IMG/VR virus record: IMGVR_UViG_2561511241_000004
Location: 1 to 40,856 of that record
DNA: 40,856 nucleotides
Source: a virus
Lineage: Duplodnaviria > Heunggongvirae > Uroviricota > Caudoviricetes
Direction: 5' to 3' (one strand)
This document shows, piece after piece, positions 15,244 through 39,810 of this stretch; positions within the stretch are counted from its first letter, which is position 1, and each line of letters starts with the position of its first letter. The notes below the pieces were generated by a model, which worked only from the letters and a program-made list of their open reading frames with translations, had not been told where the DNA came from and ran no database searches. Made by a program: the position numbers and the translations under genes.

Positions 15244-15319
15244 GGCCCTTTAGCTCAGTGGTGAGAGCGAGCGACTCATAATCGCCAGGTCGCTGGTTCA
15301 AATCCAGCAAGGGCCACCA
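15244..15319 (+). tRNA. tRNA with anticodon CAU (Ile2/Met type, ileX/ileZ-like)
   Basis: Clean cloverleaf: 7-bp acceptor stem, GCTC/GAGC D-stem, anticodon loop CUCAUAA, TTCAAAT T-loop, CCA end; very similar to E. coli ileX. Confidence 0.8.
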
Positions 15320-15320
15320 G

Positions 15321-15397
15321 CCGCCACTAGCTCATCAGGAAAGAACGTCAACCCTTTAAGTTGAGTGTGCGAGGTTCGAGTCCCCGGTGGCGGTCCA
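15321..15397 (+). tRNA. tRNA-like gene with unusual anticodon loop CCUUUAA (C at position 33); identity uncertain
   Basis: Perfect 7-bp acceptor stem, TCAAC/GTTGA anticodon stem, TTCGAGT T-loop, CCA end; mismatches in D- and T-stems. Confidence 0.5.
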
Positions 15398-15399
15398 GT

Positions 15400-15476
<77 letters not shown>

Positions 15477-15479
15477 TAT

Positions 15480-15554
<75 letters not shown>

Positions 15555-15822
15555 GCAGAGGACGATTGATACTAGGTTGTGTTAGGCACTGACACATTTT
15601 ATGTGGGGCGTTTTTCCTGACTCCTTACCTCGCCCTGTACTGTAAGGAGTGATATCGCTTGCAGCACCAGTGCCATTTTTTACGTCACCGGAATGGTGCA
15701 TTATTGGTAGAGATTTGCAATGTTTCTGGCAGGGGCCGATGATGCATCATTCTGGTGTTGTAAATAACACCATGACATTGAGATTAATCATATATTAAGC
15801 AAAACCTGGAAATGCATCCTTA

Positions 15823-15848
15823 ACCGCCTCTATCGGGCGGTTTTTTTT
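15823..15848 (+). terminator. tR'-like rho-independent terminator between the tRNA cluster and the lysis genes
   Basis: ccgcc-tctatcg-ggcgg followed by eight T; expected position for the late-operon terminator that Q would override. Confidence 0.55.
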
Positions 15849-16212
15849 ATTCTGAACTCAGAAAAGAATACACGGGCATTGATATTACCCGTGTGGCAAG
15901 GCCATGAAAGCTAATAATGAACTGAGCGCAAAAAAAGCGCGGCTGTCGGATTAACGCCGCGGGACAAAGTCCGTGAAGAAGAATAAGCATCAGTCTCCTC
16001 CAGGAGACGATTTGATATTACTAAGCTTTAAAAATGGTTTAAATCCCCCGGATTAACCTTAATTTCAGATAAGCTTTATTTCATTTTCTCCGAGCCACGT
16101 CAGGCGCACATCACATCAGATAACACCACATAAAAGGCATCTGCGGGTGTCTTTGATGGGGGTGTTTTTTACGGGTCGCTGGTGGCCCTTTTTTATTTAC
16201 AGGAGAAAAAGT

Positions 16213-16605
16213 ATGTCTGAACCCTTATCCGGTTCCGGCACGGCTGCGGCGCTCGGTGGAGCGACAGTATTCGGGCTGTTTACCGGAACGGATTTCGGGA
16301 TTGTGTTTGGTGCGTTCGCCGGGGCGTTATTTGTGGCAACGATGCCGCAGGCACTTTCAGCCTGGCGTGTGGCGGCGCATTTTCTGGTGTCGTTCATTAT
16401 CGGCGTGCTGGGCGCAGAGGTTCTGGCATCCTGGCTGGTAAAGCATACAGGGTTTGACGGTGCACCCGTCGACGCACTGTGTGCAGTGCTGGTGTCAGTG
16501 GTGTCGGTGAAGATTCTCTCGTTCATCCACCAGCAGGATATTGCATCGCTGGTGTCCGGTATGTTCTCCCGCCTGCGGGGTGGAGGAGGCGGCAATGTTA
16601 AGTAA
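16213..16605 (+). CDS. holin-like membrane protein (about 130 aa, several TM segments)
   Basis: First gene of the late operon; AGGAG RBS; Gly/Ala-rich hydrophobic segments. Confidence 0.5.
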   Translation: MSEPLSGSGTAAALGGATVFGLFTGTDFGIVFGAFAGALFVATMPQALSAWRVAAHFLVSFIIGVLGAEVLASWLVKHTGFDGAPVDALCAVLVSVVSVKILSFIHQQDIASLVSGMFSRLRGGGGGNVK

Positions 16606-16870
16606 CCTTCCCGGATTGCTGAATGTGGCGTTATGCACGGTTATCGTGCTGGCGCTCTTTTTTTATCGTCGCCGTGATTCCAGACATAAACCGCTGATGT
16701 CATGGCTGGCCTGGCTGCTGATGCTGCTGTATGCCTTTGCGCCCCTCAGCTATCTGTGTGGTCGCCCGTTAGCAACGGGCTGGCCTGAAGTGTTTTTTAA
16801 TCTGCTGTTCTGCGTGCTGGTGATACGCGCGCGCGGGAACGTCACAAAAATCTTTCCATTGTTGAGGTGA
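16595..16870 (+). CDS. small membrane protein (second holin/antiholin-like component), 91 aa
   Basis: GGAGGAGG RBS; two or three hydrophobic helices; overlaps neighbours on both sides. Confidence 0.45.
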   Translation: MLSNLPGLLNVALCTVIVLALFFYRRRDSRHKPLMSWLAWLLMLLYAFAPLSYLCGRPLATGWPEVFFNLLFCVLVIRARGNVTKIFPLLR

Positions 16871-16872
16871 AT

Positions 16873-17250
16873 ATGTCGGGTAAATTCAGATTTAGTCGTC
16901 GCAGCGAAAAGAATCTGGAGGGCGTTAAACCACAGCTGGTTGCTGTCGTTCGCCGTGCGCTGGAGCTGACGGAGGTTGATTTCGGTATTACGGAAGGGCT
17001 GCGCACGAAAGAACGCCAGAAACAGCTGGTCGCGGAAGGGAAAAGCCAGACCATGAACAGCCGCCACCTGACCGGTGATGCGGTGGATGTTGTTGCCTGG
17101 GTTGGCAGCCAGGTGTCATGGGACTGGCCTCTGTACGAGAAAATAGCGCAGGCATTTAAGCAGGCTGCCGCAGAGCTGGGAACTGCCATCGAATGGGGCG
17201 GGGACTGGAAAACACTGAAAGACGGGCCTCACTTTCAGTTGAAACGCTGA
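16873..17250 (+). CDS. endolysin, L-alanyl-D-glutamate peptidase (peptidase M15, T5 Lys-like)
   Basis: Resembles T5 endolysin (VKPQL..., HLTGDAVD, GGDW...GPHFQL). Confidence 0.8.
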   Translation: MSGKFRFSRRSEKNLEGVKPQLVAVVRRALELTEVDFGITEGLRTKERQKQLVAEGKSQTMNSRHLTGDAVDVVAWVGSQVSWDWPLYEKIAQAFKQAAAELGTAIEWGGDWKTLKDGPHFQLKR

Positions 17251-17264
17251 TAACCAGGTGTGTT

Positions 17265-17447
17265 ATGAGCAGAAAACACTGGACACACAGAATGCCGCGA
17301 ACAACGGCGAAATGGGCACTGGTAGCGATACTAGTGCCTTTTTTCTTGGTGGGATGCGTCAGCATGGATAAGGCGCGCCAGCTTTTCGATATGGCTTCTC
17401 AGGTCTGCGAAATTGTCGACGGTGTTCGGCAGTGTCTGCAGAACTGA
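17265..17447 (+). CDS. small lipoprotein after the endolysin (possible o-spanin-like lysis accessory), 60 aa
   Basis: Signal peptide with LVGC lipobox; short mature peptide with two Cys; AGGTG RBS. Confidence 0.45.
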   Translation: MSRKHWTHRMPRTTAKWALVAILVPFFLVGCVSMDKARQLFDMASQVCEIVDGVRQCLQN

Positions 17448-17489
17448 ACGACGGTGAGAGCAGAATATTTTTTAGCGGAGCGAAGTTCT

Positions 17490-17840
17490 ATGCCATCACA
17501 AATCCCCCGCGCATGCCGTAAGCGTGGCTGCGCAGGCAAAACAACAGACATCTCTGGCTACTGCGATAAACATCGTGGTGAAGGCTGGGTACAGCATCAA
17601 CGCGGACTAAGTCGCCACCAGCGTGGCTATGGCACGAAATGGGATGCCATACGTGCGCGCATACTGAAGCGTGATAATCATCTGTGTCAGAACTGCCTGC
17701 GCGATGGGAGAGCCGTTGAAGCCAGAACTGTGGACCACATCATTCCGAAAGCTCATGGTGGCACGGATGCAGACAGTAATCTGCAGAGTCTGTGCTGGCC
17801 CTGCCATAAAGCAAAAACAGCGCGCGAACGCATTAATTGA
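17490..17840 (+). CDS. HNH endonuclease (packaging-associated)
   Basis: Cys pairs and HNH motif (VDHIIPKAHGG...N...CWPCH); immediately upstream of the terminase genes. Confidence 0.8.
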   Translation: MPSQIPRACRKRGCAGKTTDISGYCDKHRGEGWVQHQRGLSRHQRGYGTKWDAIRARILKRDNHLCQNCLRDGRAVEARTVDHIIPKAHGGTDADSNLQSLCWPCHKAKTARERIN

Positions 17841-17987
17841 TAACAGTTCCCATCTGTAGGGGAGGGGCGGGTCAAATCTCTGCAACCCTGGCAGCTCAGT
17901 ACCGCCGCCTGACCCTTCCTCACATCGCCGCAGGTTCGAAAACTTTTTTTGGAAATGTGAACAAACGATTGATAGGTAAGACCGATT

Positions 17988-18471
17988 ATGTCAGGACCTC
18001 CGAAAACTCCGCCACGCCTGCATTTGATTCGAGGCAACCCCTCAAAGCGCCCCGTTAAAAGACCACAAAAAAACCGCTAAAAAGGATGAAAAAGGTCTTC
18101 CTAAAATTCCGCAGCATTTAGGGGCTCAGGGGAAGTACTGGTTCAGGCGAATGGCGGAAGAGCTGAATGCGGAAGGGATCATTTCTCAGCTTGATGCGCG
18201 TGCGCTCGAGTTGCTGGTGGAAGCCTACACCGAATATCGGCATCACTGCGAAACACTCGATGTTGAGGGGTATACCTACCGCACGGAAACGCAGAGCGGT
18301 GATGTACTGATTAAGGCGCACCCCGCGGCGGCAATGAAAGCGGATGCCTGGAAGCGGATCCGGGCAATGCTTGCAGAGTTTGGTATGTCACCGGCAAGCC
18401 GGGCTAAAGTAAATATCGCCGGACCGGATGATGTTGATCCGCTGGCGGAGCTTTTAAAAGCGAGAGACTGA
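17988..18471 (+). CDS. terminase small subunit (P27 family), reading frame interrupted at an A7 run (18067-18073)
   Basis: N-terminus MSGPPKTPPRLHLIRGNPSKRPVKRPQK in one frame stops at 18078-18080; the remainder (...KKDEKGLPKIPQHLGAQGKYWFRRMAEEL...) is in the +1 frame; removing one A joins them. Confidence 0.65.
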
Positions 18472-20228
18472 TGGCAAAAGTGGCTGACGGGATCCGCTAC
18501 GCCGAACGTGTTGTTGCAGGAGAAATTGTTGCTGGCGAATTTGTCCGCTTGGCCTGCCAGCGTTTTCTTGATGATCTGAAGTACGGCGAAGAGCGGGGGA
18601 TTTATTTCAGTGAACCCCGTGCGCAGCACATCCTGAATTTCTACAAATTTGTGCCTCATGTAAAAGGGGCGCTGGCAGGCCAGCCCATTGAACTGATGGA
18701 CTGGCATGTATTTATCCTCATTAATATTTTTGGTTTTGTCATTCCGCTGGTGAATGAAGAGACCGGGGAAGTTGTCATGCGCAGCGATGGCAGCGGACGT
18801 CCGGTGATGGTGCGCCGGTTCCGGACGGCGTACAACGAAGTCGCCCGTAAAAACGCAAAATCAACTCTGTCATCGGGTATCGGCCTGTATATGACGGGGG
18901 CAGATGGTGAAGGCGGTGCTGAGGTGTATTCAGCCGCCACCACGCGTGACCAGGCCAGAATTGTGTTTGAAGACGCCAAAAATATGGTCAGAAAAGCCCG
19001 GTCGACACTCGGGCGGTTGTTTGATTTCAACAAGCTGGCGATTTACCAGGAGCAGAGCGCATCAAAATTTGAACCGCTTTCCTCGGATGCAAACAACCTG
19101 GATGGTCTGAACATCCACTGCGCCATTATTGATGAGCTGCATGCACATAAAACCCGCGACGTGTGGGACGTTCTGGAAACGGCAACCGGTGCCCGCCTGC
19201 AGTCCCTGTTATTTGGTATCACCACGGCAGGGTTTAACAAGGAAGGGATTTGTTACGAGCAGCGTGATTACGCCATCAAGGTATTGCGTGGCTATAACAG
19301 CGATGTGGAGGGCGCTGTAAAAGACGACTCCTACTTTGCGATTATTTACACCCTCGATGAGGGAGATGATCCGTTTGATGAAACGGTCTGGCAGAAAGCG
19401 AATCCCGGCCTGGGCATCTGTAAACGCTGGGATGATCTGCGTCGTCTGGCGAAAAAGGCGAAGGAGCAGGTTTCTGCGCGGGTGAATTTTTTTACCAAAC
19501 ACATGAATGTGTGGGTCACTGCCGAATCTGCCTGGATGGACATGATTAAGTGGGAGAAGTGCGAATACATCGCTCCACAGCATGAGCTGAAAACGTATCC
19601 CATGTGGGTCGGCGTCGACCTTGCTCATAAGATTGATATCTGTGCGGCGGCAAAACTCTGGCGAACGGATAACGGGCATGTTCATGCCGATTTTAAATTC
19701 TGGCTTCCGGAAGGGCGACTGGAACGGTGTTCACGGCAGCAGGCAGAACTTTACCGGAAGTGGGCAGAGATGGGGAAGCTCATCCTGACGGATGGTGATG
19801 TTATCGATCATGCTCAGATAAAAAGTGACTTACTGGAATGGATTGGCGGTGAAAACCTCAGGGAACTGGGATTTGACCCGTGGAGCGCAATGCAGTTCAG
19901 TCTGGCGCTGGCTGAAGAAGGGATACCGCTGGTGGAAGTTCCGCAGACGGTCCGCAATCTGTCAGAGGCTATGAAGGAAACGGAATCACTGGTTTATGCC
20001 GGACGTTTCCACCACAGCAATCATCCGGTCATGAACTGGATGATGTCTAACGTTACGGTAAAACCGGACAAAAACGACAATATCTTCCCGAATAAATCCA
20101 CGCCGGAAGCCAAAATCGACGGCCCTGTTGCGATGTTTACAGCAATGAGCCGGATGCTGGTCAATGGCGGTGAACCGGAGCCGGATCTGTCTGAGCATCT
20201 GGTCAGCGTTGGTATTCGCTCGCTTTAA
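18471..20228 (+). CDS. terminase large subunit
   Basis: 585 aa with ATPase and nuclease regions typical of HK97-type large terminases; ATGA overlap with the small subunit. Confidence 0.9.
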
Positions 20229-20239
20229 CCGAGGTCATT

Positions 20240-20422
20240 ATGTTTCTGATAATTCTCACACCACTGGTGGGCGTGCTGGGGGCGCTTTTGCTGTCGTACG
20301 GCGCATGGCTGATTTATCCCCCGGCAGGTTTTGTTGTTGCCGGGGCGCTGTGCCTGTGCTGGTCGTGGCTGGTTGCGCGTTATCTCGATCGCGGTCAGTG
20401 GGTCGCCTCCGGAGGTGAGTAA
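20240..20422 (+). CDS. small hydrophobic protein between terminase and portal (60 aa)
   Basis: GAGG RBS; two hydrophobic segments. Confidence 0.4.
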
Positions 20423-21663
20423 TGTTTTTCCAGGGGCTTTTTCAACGCAAAAATAACACTCCCGTTACAACACCCGGGATGCTTGCGGAAGAGCTGGGAT
20501 TGTCATACGACACCTATACCGGAAAGCGGATCAGCAGTCAGCGGGCCATGCGGCTGACGGCGGTGTATTCCTGCGTCAGAGTGCTGGCGGAGTCTGTTGG
20601 TATGCTGCCCTGCAGCCTCTACAAAATCACCGGCACCCTTAAAACACGGGCGGTGGATGAACGACTGCATAAGCTGATTTCGGCAAAACCCAATGGCTAC
20701 ATGACACCGCAGGAATTCTGGGAGCTGGTTATCGTCTGCCTGTGTCTGCGGGGTAATTTTTACGCTTACAAGGTGAAGGCGCTGGGAGAAGTGGTGGAGC
20801 TTCTTCCGATAGATCCGGGTTGTGTGGAGCCGAAGCTGAACTGTCAGTGGCAGCCGGTTTATCAGGTGACGTTTCCGGATGGTTCCGTGGATGTGCTGAC
20901 CCAGGATGAAATCTGGCATGTGCGTACTCTGACACTGGACGGGCTGGTCGGGCTGAATCCCATTGCATATGCGCGTGAGGCCATTTCACTGGCAGCGGCA
21001 ACTGAGGAGCACGGCGCCAGGCTGTTTGGTAACGGCGCTGTGACATCCGGTGTGTTGCGTACGGATCAACAACTTTCTGATCAGGCTTATGCGCGTATCA
21101 AAAAGGACTTTGAGGAACGGCATGTCGGGCTGGGAAATTCTCATCGTCCGATGATTCTGGAAATGGGGCTGGACTGGAAAACGGTGGCACTGAATGCCGA
21201 GGACAGCCAGTTCCTGGAAACCCGTAAGTTTCAGCTGGAAGAAATCTGTCGTCTGTTCCGCGTGCCACTGCATATGGTGCAGAACACTGACCGCGCCACC
21301 TTCAACAATATTGAAGAGCTGGGGCTTGGTTTCATTAACTATTCCCTTGTGCCGTATCTGACCCGTATTGAACAGCGGATCAATACAGGGCTGGTCAGGG
21401 AGAGCAAGCAGGGGAAGTTTTACGCCAAATTTAATGCCGGAGCATTGTTGCGTGGCGACATGAAATCCCGCTTTGAAGCGTATGCCACGGGGATCAACTG
21501 GGGGATTTATTCCCCTAATGACTGCCGTGATCTGGAGGATATGAATCCTCGCCCGGGCGGTGATGTGTATCTGACACCGATGAACATGACCACCAGTCCC
21601 TCTGCTGGCGATGACAACGGTAAGAAAAAGGAGAGTGGAGATGCAGACAAAACAGCGTCTTGA
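20422..21663 (+). CDS. portal protein (HK97 family)
   Basis: 413 aa; position and sequence character of HK97-type portals. Confidence 0.9.
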   Translation: MFFQGLFQRKNNTPVTTPGMLAEELGLSYDTYTGKRISSQRAMRLTAVYSCVRVLAESVGMLPCSLYKITGTLKTRAVDERLHKLISAKPNGYMTPQEFWELVIVCLCLRGNFYAYKVKALGEVVELLPIDPGCVEPKLNCQWQPVYQVTFPDGSVDVLTQDEIWHVRTLTLDGLVGLNPIAYAREAISLAAATEEHGARLFGNGAVTSGVLRTDQQLSDQAYARIKKDFEERHVGLGNSHRPMILEMGLDWKTVALNAEDSQFLETRKFQLEEICRLFRVPLHMVQNTDRATFNNIEELGLGFINYSLVPYLTRIEQRINTGLVRESKQGKFYAKFNAGALLRGDMKSRFEAYATGINWGIYSPNDCRDLEDMNPRPGGDVYLTPMNMTTSPSAGDDNGKKKESGDADKTAS

Positions 21664-22291
21664 TATACCGCTGAACCTGAAATCCGTCAGTGATTCCGGG
21701 GAATTTGAAGGTTACGGTTCTGTTTTTGGTGTTAAGGACAGCCACGATGATGTGGTGGTCCCCGGTGCCTTTACCACAACACTCCAGAAATGGAGCGAAA
21801 AAAAGGCGCTGCCTGCGTTGCTCTGGCAGCACCGTATGGATGAGCCCATCGGTGTGTACACCGAAATGAAAGAAGATGATGTCGGGCTTTATGTCAGGGG
21901 GCGATTACTCGTTGATGATGATCCCCTGGCAAAACGTGCACATGCCCATATGAAGGCCGGTTCTTTAACCGGCCTTTCTATTGGCTACATCCTGAAAGAC
22001 TGGGAGTACGACCGTGAAAAAGGGGTATTCCTGCTGAAAGAGATCGACCTGTGGGAGGTCAGTCTGGTGACGTTTCCTTGCAATGATGAGGCACGTATCA
22101 GCGATGTGAAAAATGCGCTGGCGCGTGGGGAGATCCCTGATCAGAAAATTATTGAGCGGGTCCTGCGCGATGTTGGACTCTCGCGAACCCAGGCCAAAGC
22201 ATTCATGGCCGGGGGATATGGCGCTTTATCCCTGCGTGATGCTGAGGATGTGGATGCCGCACTGAATGCACTGAAAAATCTTAAATTTTAA
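21641..22291 (+). CDS. prohead protease (HK97 family)
   Basis: GGAGAGTGGAG RBS; between portal and major capsid; overlaps the portal 3' end. Confidence 0.85.
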   Translation: MQTKQRLDIPLNLKSVSDSGEFEGYGSVFGVKDSHDDVVVPGAFTTTLQKWSEKKALPALLWQHRMDEPIGVYTEMKEDDVGLYVRGRLLVDDDPLAKRAHAHMKAGSLTGLSIGYILKDWEYDREKGVFLLKEIDLWEVSLVTFPCNDEARISDVKNALARGEIPDQKIIERVLRDVGLSRTQAKAFMAGGYGALSLRDAEDVDAALNALKNLKF

Positions 22292-22305
22292 CCAGGAGAA
22301 AAATA

Positions 22306-23529
22306 ATGGCTGACATTAAAGATGTGGAGCAGGTCGCGCAGGAGCTGCAGCAGAAGTTTGACGATTTTAAGGCAAAAAACGACAAGCGCATTGACGCGAT
22401 CGAACAGGAAAAAGGCAAGCTGGCCGAACAGGTGGAAAGCCTGAACGGGCAAATCAGCGAGCTGGAGAACCTGAAAAGCGATCTTGAGGCTGAACTGGCT
22501 GAAGTTAAACGTCCGGCAGGCGGCACGCAAAATAAAGTTGCCGGTGAACATAAAGAAGCGTTTATCGGTTTTATGCGCAAGGGGCGTGAAGACGGTCTGC
22601 GTGAGCTTGAGCGTAAGGCGCTGCAGGTGGGCAATGATGAAGATGGTGGTTATGCCATTCCGGAAGAACTGGATCGCACCATTCTGACGCTGCTGAAAGA
22701 TGAGGTGGTGATGCGCCAGGAAGCCACTGTGATCACCCTCGGTGGCTCGGATTATAAAAAACTGGTGAATCTGGGCGGCACAACGTCCGGATGGGTGGGG
22801 GAAACGGATGCACGTCCTGAAACCGCCACCTCAAAACTGGGTCTGATTGAACCCTTTATGGGGGAAATCTACGGCAACCCGCAGGCCACCCAGAAAATGC
22901 TCGATGATGCTTTCTTCAATGTGGAAGACTGGATCAACAGTGAACTGGCGCTGGAATTTGCCGAACAGGAAGAAATTGCCTTTACCAGTGGCGACGGCAG
23001 CAAAAAACCAAAAGGTTTTCTGGCTTATGAGTCCACTGATGAAGATGACAAGACCCGTGCATTTGGCAAACTTCAGCACATTGCTTCCGGTGCGGCTTCT
23101 GGCGTGACCGCCGATGCGATTATTAAACTGATTTACACCCTGCGCAAGGCGCACCGCAGCGGCGCGAAGTTCATGATGAACAACAGCAGCCTGTTTGCCA
23201 TTCGTCTGCTGAAGGATAACGACGGAAATTATCTGTGGCGTCCGGGTATTGAGCTGGGTCAGCCTTCTTCTCTGGCAGGGTATGGCATCGTTGAAAATGA
23301 GCAGATGCCGGATATTGCCGCCGATGCAAAAGCCATTGCGTTTGGTAATTTCAAACGTGGCTATACCATCGTTGATCGCATCGGCACCCGCATCCTGCGC
23401 GATCCTTACACCAACAAACCGTTTGTGGGCTTTTATACCACCAAACGAACCGGCGGTATGCTGGTGGATTCTCAGGCGATTAAGCTGATGAAAATTGGGG
23501 CTGCAACCCGCCAGAAAGCCGCTGCGTAA
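22306..23529 (+). CDS. major capsid protein (HK97 fold, with N-terminal coiled-coil delta domain)
   Basis: 407 aa; N-terminal heptad-rich region then capsid domain. Confidence 0.9.
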   Translation: MADIKDVEQVAQELQQKFDDFKAKNDKRIDAIEQEKGKLAEQVESLNGQISELENLKSDLEAELAEVKRPAGGTQNKVAGEHKEAFIGFMRKGREDGLRELERKALQVGNDEDGGYAIPEELDRTILTLLKDEVVMRQEATVITLGGSDYKKLVNLGGTTSGWVGETDARPETATSKLGLIEPFMGEIYGNPQATQKMLDDAFFNVEDWINSELALEFAEQEEIAFTSGDGSKKPKGFLAYESTDEDDKTRAFGKLQHIASGAASGVTADAIIKLIYTLRKAHRSGAKFMMNNSSLFAIRLLKDNDGNYLWRPGIELGQPSSLAGYGIVENEQMPDIAADAKAIAFGNFKRGYTIVDRIGTRILRDPYTNKPFVGFYTTKRTGGMLVDSQAIKLMKIGAATRQKAAA

Positions 23530-25790: not shown

Positions 25791-26176
25791 TGAGGATAGA
25801 TGTGATGACTAAAAATATCCGCAATCTGGCACTGGCAACGATGTCGGGGTTTCGCCACAAAACTGTTGATGTGCCTGAATGGGAAGGGGCAACGGTTGTA
25901 TTACGGGAACCTTCTGCAGAAGCCTGGTTGCGCTGGCAGGAGATCGTTAAAGCAAAAGATGATGAGACACCGTTATCCGTTGCGGAGCGCGCCCGCCGAA
26001 ATCTGGAGGCAGATGTTGAACTGTTCATTGATGTTCTGTGTGATACCGGACTGCAACCTGTATTTTCAGAGGATGATCGTGAACGGGTGATTGCCGTGTA
26101 TGGCCCGGTGCATGCGCGGCTTCTTCGGCAGTCTCTGGAACTGATCAGTGATGCCGGCGAGGTTAAAAAAAAGTAG
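25790..26176 (+). CDS. tail assembly chaperone (lambda G-like)
   Basis: Ends ...GEVKKK at a slippery A-run; immediately followed by a -1 frame ORF. Confidence 0.7.
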   Translation: MRIDVMTKNIRNLALATMSGFRHKTVDVPEWEGATVVLREPSAEAWLRWQEIVKAKDDETPLSVAERARRNLEADVELFIDVLCDTGLQPVFSEDDRERVIAVYGPVHARLLRQSLELISDAGEVKKK

Positions 26177-26517: not shown

Positions 26518-27975
26518 ATGAGTGTGGCGACATTACGTGAACTGATTATTAAAATCTCGGCAAATTCCCGGTCATTCCAGTCAGAGATCTCCCGGGCTTC
26601 GCGTATGGGGCAGGATTACTACCGTACCATGCAGAACGGAGGCCGGCAGTCCGCTGCTGCATCCCGTGAAATGCGGCGTGCACTGGCAGAAGTGACGGAT
26701 CAGATAAATACAGCTAAATCTTCGGCACTGAACATGGCTGGCGCATTTGCCGGTGCTTTTGCCACTGGACATCTTATATCTCTTGCGGATGAATGGAGTT
26801 CAGTAAATGCCCGTCTGAAGCAGGCCTCACAGTCCAGTGATGATTTTCAGGCATCACAGCGTGAATTAATGGCGATCAGCCAGAAAACGGGGACGGCGTT
26901 TTCTGATAACGCACGCCTTTTTGCCCGTTCTGCAGCTTCCATGCGGGAGTATGGTTACAGTTCTGAGGAAGTACTGAAAGTCACCGAGGCGATCTCCACG
27001 GGCCTGAATTTATCCGGTGCCAGTACAGCAGAAGCCAGTTCGGTGATCACGCAGTTCAGTCAGGCACTGGCGCAGGGAGTGCTGCGCGGTGAAGAGTTTA
27101 ACTCGGTGAATGAGAACGGCGATCGTGTTATTCGTGCGCTGGCTGCGGGAATGGGTGTTGCCCGTAAGGATCTGAAGGCCATGGCGGATAACGGAAAACT
27201 GACCACCGATAAGGTTGTTCCTGCACTGATTAGTCAGCTTGGGGCATTACGTGATGAATATGCGGCAATGCCTGATACGGTTTCATCCTCTGCAACCAAA
27301 GTTGAAAACGCCTTTATGGCCTGGGTTGGTGGTGCGAACGAGGCAAGCGGAGTGACGAAGACGCTCTCCGGTGTGCTGAATGGTATTGCAGGCAATATTG
27401 ACACCGTGGCAACCGCTGCCGGTGCTCTGGTTGCCGTCGGGGTAGCCCGATATTTTGGCAATATGGCGTCTTCTGCTGGATCTGCAACTGCCGGATTAAT
27501 TACTGCAGCCAGAAACGAAGTGGCTCTTGCGGAAGCGCAACTCCGGGGGACACAGATAGCAACAGCCAGGGCGCGTGCGGCGGTTTATCGTGCGCAACAG
27601 GCAGTTGTGGCTACCCGTGGTACAGAAAGGCAGGCAGCCGCAGAAGCGAAACTGGCTGCTGCCCAGGCATCACTTACCCGTAATATTGCGGCCAGAACAG
27701 CAGCACAGACAACGCTGAATACTGTCACGTCAGTGGGGAGCCGTTTGTTAAGTGGGGCACTGGGGCTGGTTGGGGGTGTGCCGGGGCTTGTCATGCTGGG
27801 AGCCGCGGCCTGGTACACGACTGTATCAGAATCAGGAGCAGGCCAGAGAATCTGCACGCCAGTATGCCGCAACAATCGACGAAATTCGCCAGAAAACCGT
27901 CGGCAATGTCGCTTCCTGAAGCGTCAGATAATGAGGAAAAGACGCGGCAGGCACTTGATGAGCAAAACAGGTTAA
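26518..27975 (+). CDS. tail tape measure protein, N-terminal fragment (credible to about 27835, then junk)
   Basis: Coiled-coil rich, ends with hydrophobic ...GGVPGLVMLGAAAWY; translation after about 27840 is Arg/Cys junk. Confidence 0.6.
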   Translation: MSVATLRELIIKISANSRSFQSEISRASRMGQDYYRTMQNGGRQSAAASREMRRALAEVTDQINTAKSSALNMAGAFAGAFATGHLISLADEWSSVNARLKQASQSSDDFQASQRELMAISQKTGTAFSDNARLFARSAASMREYGYSSEEVLKVTEAISTGLNLSGASTAEASSVITQFSQALAQGVLRGEEFNSVNENGDRVIRALAAGMGVARKDLKAMADNGKLTTDKVVPALISQLGALRDEYAAMPDTVSSSATKVENAFMAWVGGANEASGVTKTLSGVLNGIAGNIDTVATAAGALVAVGVARYFGNMASSAGSATAGLITAARNEVALAEAQLRGTQIATARARAAVYRAQQAVVATRGTERQAAAEAKLAAAQASLTRNIAARTAAQTTLNTVTSVGSRLLSGALGLVGGVPGLVMLGAAAWYTTVSESGAGQRICTPVCRNNRRNSPENRRQCRFLKRQIMRKRRGRHLMSKTG

Positions 27976-36261: not shown

Positions 36262-39009
36262 ATGGCAGTAAAAATTTCAGGTGTACTGAAAGACGGCACA
36301 GGAAAACCGGTACAGAACTGCACAATCCAGCTGAAAGCAAAACGTAACAGTACCACGGTGGTGGTGAACACGCTGGCATCTGAAAATCCGGATGAAGCCG
36401 GGCGTTACAGCATGGACGTTGAGTACGGTCAGTACAGCGTTATTTTGTTGGTGGAGGGATTCCCGCCGTCACATGCCGGGACCATCACCGTGTATGAAGA
36501 TTCTCAACCCGGTACGCTGAATGATTTTCTCGGTGCCATGACGGAGGATGATGCCCGTCCGGAGGCACTGCGCCGCTTTGAACTGATGGTGGAAGAGGTG
36601 GCGCGTAACGCGTCCGCAGTGGCGCAGAACACAGCAGCCGCGAAGAAGTCAGCCAGCGATGCCAGCACATCAGCCCGTGAGGCGGCAACCCATGCGACTG
36701 ATGCTGCAGGCTCAGCACGTGCAGCCAGCACATCAGCCGGGCAGGCCGCGACGTCGGCTCAGTCAGCGTCTTCCAGCGCAGGAACGGCATCAACAAAGGC
36801 TACTGAAGCATCAAAAAGTGCTGCCGCTGCAGAGTCCTCAAAAAGCGCGGCAGCTACCAGTGCCAGTGCCGCGAAAACGTCAGAAACGAATGCGGCAGCG
36901 TCACAAAAATCTGCAGCCACTTCTGCATCCACCGCGACCACGAAAGCGTCAGAAGCTGCCACCTCAGCCCGGGATGCGGCGGCCTCAAAAGAGGCAGCGA
37001 AATCATCAGAAACGAGCGCAGCCTCGAGCGCCAGCAGCGCAGCTTCCTCGGCAACGGCGGCAGGAAATTCCGCGAAGGCGGCAAAGACGTCCGAGACGAA
37101 CGCCAGGTCTTCTGAAACGGCAGCGGGACAGAGTGCCTCAGCTGCGGCAGGCTCAAAAACAGCGGCTGCATCATCTGCCAGTGCCGCGTCAACAAGTGCC
37201 GGGCAGGCCTCAGCCAGTGCCACCGCTGCCGGAAAGTCGGCAGAAAGTGCCGCATCGTCTGCTTCAACAGCCACAACGAAGGCTGGCGAAGCCACTGAAC
37301 AGGCCAGCGCAGCAGCGAGGTCAGCTTCCGCAGCGAAGACATCCGAAACGAACGCGAAAGCGTCGGAAACCCGTGCAGAATCCTCAAAAACGGCTGCCGC
37401 ATCGTCAGCCAGTTCGGCGGCGTCATCGGCATCATCGGCGTCTGCTTCAAAAGATGAGGCGACCAGACAGGCGTCAGCAGCGAAGGGCAGCGCCACGACA
37501 GCATCCACGAAGGCGACAGAGGCAGCTGGCAGTGCGACGGCGGCAGCACAGAGCAAAAGTACGGCGGAATCCGCGGCAACGCGCGCCGAGACAGCGGCAA
37601 AACGGGCAGAGGATATTGCATCCGCCGTGGCGCTTGAGGATGCGAGCACGACGAAAAAGGGGATAGTACAGCTCAGCAGTGCGACCAACAGCACGTCTGA
37701 AACGCTGGCGGCAACGCCAAAGGCAGTTAAAACTGTTAAAGATAGTTCAGTTCAAAAAACTGGCGACACAATGGGAGGGCAGTTAAAAATCAGCACGATA
37801 AATGCTCTTCGAATATTCAACCAAGCCTTTGGCCTTATTTTTAGGCGTTCCGAAGATCATCTTCATCTTATTCCGACTAATGAAGGGGAGGGGGAAAATG
37901 GAGACATCGGTTCATTAAGACCATTCTCTATAAACTTAAGATCAGGGTTGGTGTCCATCGGTAATGGACTAAAAGTTGGTGGTAGTGTTACTGGTAATTT
38001 GACCGGAAACGCAGATACTGCGACCAAGATCAAGACAGCACGTAAGATTGGGGGCGTGGCATTTGATGGATCGGCAGATATCAACTTGCCTGGAGTCAAC
38101 GCTACCGGTAATCAAAACACTACAGGTAATGCTGCGACCGCCACGAAACTTCAGGCAGCCAGAACGATTAACGGTGTGTCATTTGATGGTAGTGCAAATA
38201 TCACATTGACCCCTTCAAATATTGGGGCATTGGCATTAACTGGAGGGACTCTTTCAGGTGGTTTAACTGCTGCTGGTGAGGTTATTTCAAGGTCAGCAAA
38301 TGGTCTGCGTATTGCCTATGGCAACTATGGATTCTTTATCCGAAATGATGGATTAAACACATATTTTATGTTGACAGATTCGGGTAACAGGCTTGGTACG
38401 TACAATAGCTTAAGGCCGTTTATAATTAGTAACCATACTGGCAATGTTACAATTGCAACTAAATTAAACGCGAGTGGTGGTATCACTGGATCTTTATCGG
38501 GTAATGCAAGCACAGCAACCAAATTGCAAACTGCAAGGACAATTAACGGCGTAAAATTTGACGGCTCGGCAAATATTGAAGCGTTTCCGCCAGGTGTTCC
38601 GCTGCCGTGGCCATCAGATACACCACCTGCAGGTTATGCAATCATGCAGGGGCAGACGTTTGATAAGGCAGCATATCCGAAACTGGCTATTGCCTATCCT
38701 TCAGGTGTTATTCCAGATATGCGCGGCTGGACAATCAAGGGCAAACCCGCCAGTGGTCGGGCCGTATTGTCTCAGGAACAGGACGGCATTAAATCGCACA
38801 CCCACAGCGCCAGCGTATCCAGTACGGATTTGGGGACGAAAACCACATCGTCGTTTGATTACGGCACTAAATCCACGAATAACACTGGTGCGCATACCCA
38901 TAGTGTTAGCGGTACGGCTGCTTCAGCCGGTGCACATACCCATTCGATGACATTTGTTTCAGGTGGTTCCAGTGGTGCTCCGGGAAGTGGATCACCTGAT
39001 TATTACTAA
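36262..39009 (+). CDS. stf: side tail fibre protein (Stf-like) with long Ala/Ser/Thr-rich repeat region; frame breaks about 70 codons before the expected C-terminus
   Basis: Conserved N-terminus [16 protein letters not shown]; low-complexity repeat 36600-37650; GAHTHS repeats near the 3' end; ends ...GSGSPDYY. Confidence 0.8.
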
Positions 39010-39226
39010 ATACAGTGTTAACACTTCTTCTGCAGGCGCTCATACGCACTCTGTATCGGGTACTGCTGCAAGCGCAGGTGCACACGCACATACTGTCGGT
39101 ATTGGTGCTCATACGCACTCCGTTGCGATTGGTTCACATGGACATACCATCACCGTTAACGCTGCTGGTAACGCGGAAAACACCGTCAAAAACATCGCAT
39201 TTAACTATATTGTGAGGCTTGCGTAA
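38954..39226 (+). CDS. Stf C-terminal segment in an alternate frame (canonical ...[13 protein letters not shown] end)
   Basis: Repeats the [17 protein letters not shown] motif and ends exactly where tfa starts. Confidence 0.5.
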
Positions 39227-39810
39227 TGGCATTCAGAATGAGTGAACAACCACGGACCATAAAAATTTATAATCTGCTGGCCGGAACTAATGAATTTATT
39301 GGTGAAGGTGACGCATATATTCCGCCTCATACAGGTCTGCCAGCAAACAGTACCGATATTGCACCACCAGATATTCCTGCTGGCTTTGTGGCTGTTTTCA
39401 ACAGTGATGAGGCATCGTGGCATCTCGTTGAAGACCATCGGGGTAAAACGGTTTATGACGTAGCGTCAGGGGACGAGTTATTTATTTCTGAACTCGGTCC
39501 GTTACCGGAAAATGTTACCTGGTTATCGCCGGAAGGGGAGTTTCAGAAGTGGAACGGCACAGCCTGGGTGAAGGATACGGAAGCAGAAAAACTGTTCCGG
39601 ATCCGGGAGGCGGAAGAAACAAAAAACAACCTGATGCAGGTAGCCAGTGAGCATATTGCGCCGCTTCAGGATGCTGCAGATCTGGAAATTGCAACGGAGG
39701 AAGAAACCTCATTGCTGGAAGCCTGGAAAAAGTATCGGGTGTTGCTGAACCGTGTTGATACATCAACTGCACCTGATATTGAGTGGCCTACGAACCCTGT
39801 CAGGGAGTAA
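39226..39810 (+). CDS. tfa: tail fibre assembly protein (Tfa)
   Basis: 194 aa, [18 protein letters not shown]... Tfa family; immediately follows stf. Confidence 0.85.
39656..39810 (+). repeat. direct repeat copy 1 (tfa 3' region, about 85% identical to 40697..40856)
   Basis: Aligned by eye: gcgcc(g/a)ct(t/g)caggatgctg(c/t)agatctggaaat(t/c)gcaacggaggaagaaa... Confidence 0.6.

Follow-up and report, generated by a model that had tools for sequence, protein, structure and literature searches.

Terminase small subunits of the P27 family (TIGR01558/PF05119) are single uninterrupted ORFs of about 150-165 aa with an N-terminal arm of the form G..KTP..L...GNPSKR, and WP_001317918.1 is one member of this family from E. 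coli. Frames that are joined by a -1 shift are known from dnaX and from the phage tail-chaperone G-GT genes (A_AAA_AAG), and recoding sites are defined by the conservation of the out-of-frame arrangement. Efficient transcriptional slippage in E. coli takes runs of about 9 or more. Broken frames are also found in prophage genes, which do decay, and they are produced by homopolymer-length errors in pyrosequencing and long-read assemblies.

The locus compared here with these systems lies in a window of 40,856 nucleotides, i.e., the whole stretch of DNA that was analysed, which is a lambdoid prophage running from an integrase gene (572-1690) to a tail-fibre assembly gene (39226-39810). Its positions 8151-28471 match exactly a locus of 20,321 nt (L023; CP002729.1, 1373032-1393352) from E. 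coli UMNK88 (GCA_000212715.2), the strain to which the accession CP002729 belongs (PMC4358887). The packaging module shows the HK97-type order of HNH endonuclease, terS, terL, portal, S78 protease and capsid genes, with terS immediately 5' of terL and overlapping it inside the head-morphogenesis module (Table 1). Four tRNA genes (Met-CAT, Lys-TTT, Thr-TGT and Gly-TCC) were also found at 15244-15554, in the interval that separates the Q antiterminator from the lysis genes; of these, the tRNA-Gly gene probably explains why a 12-kb query matched 5424 of 5426 E. coli genomes.

Table 1. Features of the terS locus, of the other split genes and of the one-base differences from the independent assembly L013 (positions in the window).
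Feature	Position	Strand	Remarks
HNH endonuclease, 116 aa	17490..17840	+	directly upstream of terS, as in HK97-type packaging modules
5' fragment of terS	17988..18080	+	30 codons + TAA; authentic conserved N-terminus in codons 1-24, shifted frame in codons 25-30
A4 run with the extra base, the frame-shifting lesion	18056..18059	+	A3 in every relative examined
3' part of terS (intact-protein residues 25-160)	18060..18471	+	+1 frame; contains the entire Terminase_4/TIGR01558 domain
A7 run	18067..18073	+	usual length for the allele; Lys-Lys codons in the intact frame; A6/A8 elsewhere through neighbouring substitutions, total length the same
Premature TAA stop	18078..18080	+	met in the shifted frame
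106-aa ORF from an internal ATG	18151..18471	+	gene callers' product in frameshifted assemblies; without the N-terminal arm or TIGR01558 model positions 2-17
Terminase large subunit, 585 aa, intact	18471..20228	+	start overlaps the terS stop (ATGA)
Tape-measure gene, split 485 + 545 aa	26518..29755	+	one-base insertions at 27821, 27897, 28070 and 28148
Tail-fibre gene, split 917 + 84 aa	36256..39226	+	one-base insertion at 39005
Homopolymer difference	16045		window C5, L013 C4
Homopolymer difference	16162		window G5, L013 G4
Homopolymer difference	16164		window T6, L013 T7
Homopolymer difference	17943		window T7, L013 T8
Homopolymer difference	18057		window A4, L013 A3

In the deposited sequence, the ATG at 17988 opens a 30-codon ORF (MSGPPKTPPRLHLIRGNPSKRPVKRPQKNR), terminated by the TAA at 18078-18080, and the downstream part of terS follows in the +1 frame, which is open from about 18024 to 18471. 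The earlier note had described this as a terminase small subunit split by a single-base frame change in the A7 run. The split and the +1 continuation were both recovered, and removal of one A from this run (18067-18073) did join the two frames into a single ORF, as had been proposed; its placement of the change in the A7 run did not hold, as intact relatives share the A7. The uninterrupted ORF expected of the family is broken after codon 24 in the record, by an insertion that none of the other P27-family members carries, and it was obtained only once one A of 18056-18059 was deleted. The product is then 160 aa long and identical to WP_001317918.1, with a full-length HMM match, and the gene order is the same. 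The family matches lie above the curated cut-offs of both Pfam PF05119 (Terminase_4; E 2.4e-25, 89.2 bits, cut-off 24.7) and NCBIfam TIGR01558 (P27 family; E 4.7e-32); with TIGR01558 (cut-off 45.6), the repaired protein scored 110.4 bits and the 106-aa fragment 85.9 bits. This terS is an ordinary gene for a P27-family small subunit, carried by an HK97-type lambdoid prophage of E. coli UMNK88.

Comparison with close relatives, which had been put forward as a check, located the lesion. Four E. coli loci (L001-L004, 99.4-99.7% identity) carry an intact 483-nt terS, annotated as WP_001317918.1, and they also have the A7; the same holds for L013, whose locus is otherwise identical. The local difference between relatives and window is GTTAAAGACCAC (A3) versus GTTAAAAGACCAC (A4) at 18056-18059, or in its short form GTTAAAGAC versus GTTAAAAGAC, which places the extra base eight bases 5' of the A7 run. 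Since relatives with A7 have an intact gene and differ only in having A3 and not A4, the lesion lies at 18056-18059 and not in the A7, and the intact protein reads ...KRPVKDHKKTAKKDEKG... across it. Other alleles at the same place (CCC-A8, TC-A8, GCC-A7, CCC-A6-G) keep the same total length and an intact frame, and the A-run here is ordinary Lys-Lys coding sequence. As A7 is the normal length for the allele, a test on raw reads looking for A6 or A9 in this run, as had been suggested, would have misled.

The A4 allele was not recovered from any other source searched. With an 80-nt probe, 333 matches were obtained among RefSeq complete E. coli genomes, none of them identical to it and the best showing 79/80 with one gap. 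In each of the 26 alignments of fetched loci spanning this position, the base was an insertion in the window. Likewise, a search of metagenome (5) and IMG/VR (33) contigs, with a pattern that allowed A3 or A3 plus any one base, returned the 40-nt A3 form in all of them. The A3 tract was thus invariant in all relatives, a pattern that differs from that of a phase-variable contingency locus. UMNK88 itself was absent from the RefSeq complete-genome set used (NC_017641 is not in that set), which would fit with an exclusion on quality grounds.

The terS lesion is accompanied by other one-base differences in the same assembly. Window positions 15470-23228 were compared with L013, which derives from an independent assembly (GCA_018546565.1), and over these 7.76 kb 0 mismatches and 5 one-base gaps were found, all 5 being homopolymer-length differences (Table 1). 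At three of these five positions (16162, 16164 and 17943), other relatives vary as well. The differences at 16045, 16162-16164 and 17943 are non-coding, located upstream of the holin gene and between the HNH and terS genes, where the cos site is expected.

Two further structural genes are split in the window. The four insertions in the tape-measure gene fall within 330 bp, and removal of those bases gives one 1077-aa ORF; the tape-measure protein of a relative could be traced in the window through frames 0, 1, 2, 0 and 1. These insertions were absent from all 16 fetched relatives covering them and from the 901 RefSeq genomes matching the stretch, of which none reached 99% identity; the matches listed span 387 bases for the 391 queried. 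In the tail-fibre gene, the insertion is an extra A (ATTACT versus ATTCT) relative to ETEC4085, the one near-identical relative compared, in which the gene is continuous and encodes 987 aa. In alignments over 13.6 kb to 8 relatives, with about 165 substitutions in each, just two further gaps recurred in the majority, one in an intergenic T-run and one an artefact at an alignment end; natural indels are, by these alignments, rare in this lineage. The six coding lesions, spread over three structural genes, are +1 insertions without exception, and this suggests a systematic bias.

The extra A in terS is probably a base-calling or assembly error in the deposited record. The lesion is private to this assembly and comes with other private one-base indels without substitutions. 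As the insertions are clustered, unshared and accompanied by 0 substitutions with respect to the nearest independent assembly, an error fits much better than a mutation, and with the lesion placed at 18056-18059, its absence elsewhere and the five more one-base insertions in the prophage, error rather than mutation is the most likely reading. Under it, the A3 run would have been miscalled as A4 at 18056-18059 in CP002729.1, adding one spurious A, and the real UMNK88 DNA would be expected to hold a single 483-nt terS ORF whose 160-aa product is that of WP_001317918.1. A sequencing error had been among the three origins offered previously and is the best supported of them, although the run concerned is the shorter one (A3 to A4) and not the A7. 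What the insertions share with homopolymer-length errors of pyrosequencing or long-read assemblies is that they are private, clustered, free of substitutions and break conserved ORFs. However, several of the UMNK88 runs are only 1-4 bases long, two of the six insertions (27821 and 39005) fall outside homopolymers and a further three within very short runs, unlike the classic long-homopolymer error pattern. This counts against the error reading, as does the variation of other relatives at 16162, 16164 and 17943.

The alternative that the extra A is real and recent, and that terS is a pseudogene which adds to the broken tape-measure and tail-fibre genes in rendering the UMNK88 prophage defective, we regard as unlikely, if still worth considering. 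The frame split is unambiguous in the record, prophage decay is common, and different single-base lesions affect the same gene elsewhere: A8 to A7 in five loci (L019, L020, L021, L024 and L026), G4 to G3 in L022, a T deletion in L027 and a T inserted towards the 3' end in L009, this last locus coming from a look-up of TerL and the others from a look-up of the 106-aa truncated product. Against such decay, the nearest independent assembly shows zero substitutions together with five homopolymer-length differences, the four insertions inside 330 bp of one gene keep the coding signal in each shifted segment, all six lesions are insertions, and none of them is shared with any of approximately 900 genomes. 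The frameshifted loci from the 106-aa look-up have many neighbouring gene calls that are also broken, so that these assemblies look error-prone too, and the A8 to A7 form appears in only 1 of 846 RefSeq genomes.

This rarity, with the broken neighbouring genes in those assemblies, also led us to reject the A8 to A7 change of five assemblies as a phase-variable tract, and no sign of a conserved or frequently switching terS tract was seen among the compared assemblies. The annotation "small subunit (x2)" in phage Evi, considered as a second split terS, proved to come from an ORF called on the opposite strand of a 483-nt gene that is itself intact. In addition, an island splits terL in both L019 (10321-20321) and L025 (11514-20321), at one shared point (locus position ~11520). 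It contains genes for an integrase, AlpA, Bro-N, a primase-like protein (AAA_25 or DUF927), ProQ, a capsid protein and an S78 protease, and it resembles a capsid-forming phage satellite integrated in a prophage terminase gene.

Slippage-dependent expression, which had also been offered as an explanation for the split, is very improbable. It would have low amounts of full-length TerS made through a +1 slip of tRNA-Lys on AAA-AAC or through slippage of RNA polymerase in the A7 run; fusion of the frames needs a ribosome shift of +1 (or -2) between 18056 and 18078, and the polymerase would have to drop one A or add two. The A7 run does lie inside that interval, and a +1 shift anywhere in it alters just 3-6 residues, all in a linker (residues 23-37) that varies in sequence and length in a 16-sequence alignment; the protein from a rare +1 event would therefore probably work. 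Folding of the downstream 87 nt gave -27.4 kcal/mol (z = -2.5 versus shuffles), a weak signal that is not specific. However, the out-of-frame arrangement was found in no relative, including 333 RefSeq genomes, 26 alignments, 38 metagenome and viral contigs and the homologues of other genera. The motif is also the wrong one: the -1 frameshift motif is given as X_XXZ_ZZN in one description (PMC4066793), and the zero-frame CAA AAA AAC is A_AAA_AAC, a -1 heptamer, whereas a +1 shift is needed and the -1 frame stops after 17 codons. No Shine-Dalgarno-like stimulator, slow codon or stop codon was seen at or upstream of the site, nor any sign of selection for a +1 event, and a literature search on frameshifts in small-terminase genes found nothing specific. 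Transcriptional slippage fares no better, as the run is an A7, shorter than about 9, and relatives carry A6-A8 in frame. As in dnaX and the G-GT genes with their -1 sites, there is an A-rich lysine run in the overlap of two frames; in terS, however, a +1 shift is needed, the split is unconserved and the A7 is in frame in every intact relative. Slightly more remote still would be the combination of a real extra A with small amounts of full-length TerS made by +1 slippage of tRNA-Lys(UUU), or of RNA polymerase, on the A7; were it true, the shift would be tolerated in the variable linker, and packaging would be throttled but not abolished.

A textbook programmed -1 site was observed elsewhere in the same prophage, at 26162-26176 (GTT AAA AAA AAG TAG), where A_AAA_AAG (26167-26173) directly precedes the stop that ends the tail assembly chaperone gene, with a T-like ORF (ATG 26188) in the -1 frame. 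Its A-run is A8 in the window, L028-L030 and L033, and A7 in L031, L032, L035, L036 and L075; a 160-aa chaperone call is recorded in L032 and L026, and the chaperone gene of L075 is annotated as an incomplete pseudogene. The A8/A7 difference could be a real polymorphism or a homopolymer error.

Finally, the reading in which the upstream 30-codon ORF lies outside the gene and the true TerS begins at the internal ATG 18151 (106 aa) has next to no likelihood and is in effect refuted by homologue lengths, an invariant N-terminus and the codon-position pattern, even if the 106-aa form remains above the Pfam and NCBIfam cut-offs. Homologues with 59-81% identity that cover the whole query are 153-167 aa long in at least 10 genera (those sampled being Enterobacter, Cronobacter, Hafnia, Serratia, Providencia, Edwardsiella, Xenorhabdus, Proteus, Salmonella, Raoultella and Pantoea), and the 16-sequence alignment shows no variation at M1, G3, K6, T7, P8, L11 or G16-R21 (GNPSKR). 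Across 12 different intact alleles from E. coli, third codon positions account for 8 of the 9 variable sites in codons 1-23. The conserved N-terminus and this third-position variation make the 106-aa product, from which TIGR01558 model positions 2-17 are missing, a truncation and not the true gene. The conserved P27-type N-terminus reported in the earlier note was accordingly confirmed as part of the protein for residues 1-24, whereas its "RPQKNR" is an out-of-frame reading of ...KDHKKT....

The 106-aa product is recorded in 84 blocks of the public collection, and the ten places listed for it comprise UMNK88 (1), A8 to A7 in the TC-A8 allele (5), G4 to G3 (1), a lost T (1) and intact genes (2). 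The intact ones are L018 and L025, where the upstream sequence and the 483-nt terS are undamaged yet the collection records only the internal-start product; this favours the internal start at face value and corresponds to an inconsistency of gene calling with no lesion. The collection contains no gene call for the 30-aa N-terminal ORF, through which, accordingly, no further assembly was reached, and a PDB sequence search gave only chance-level matches (Nop10, E 0.04), with no pointer to a role for the N-terminal arm.

A frame split beside a long homopolymer invites a story of slippage or recoding, and here the relatives point instead to a shorter run and to assembly-specific insertions. The pseudogenes annotated for terS, tape measure and tail fibre in this prophage are best regarded as unverified by users of CP002729.1. 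Were the lesions real, the UMNK88 prophage would provide neither full TerS for cos recognition nor tails, and it would simply add to the defective prophages, here in a pig ETEC strain.
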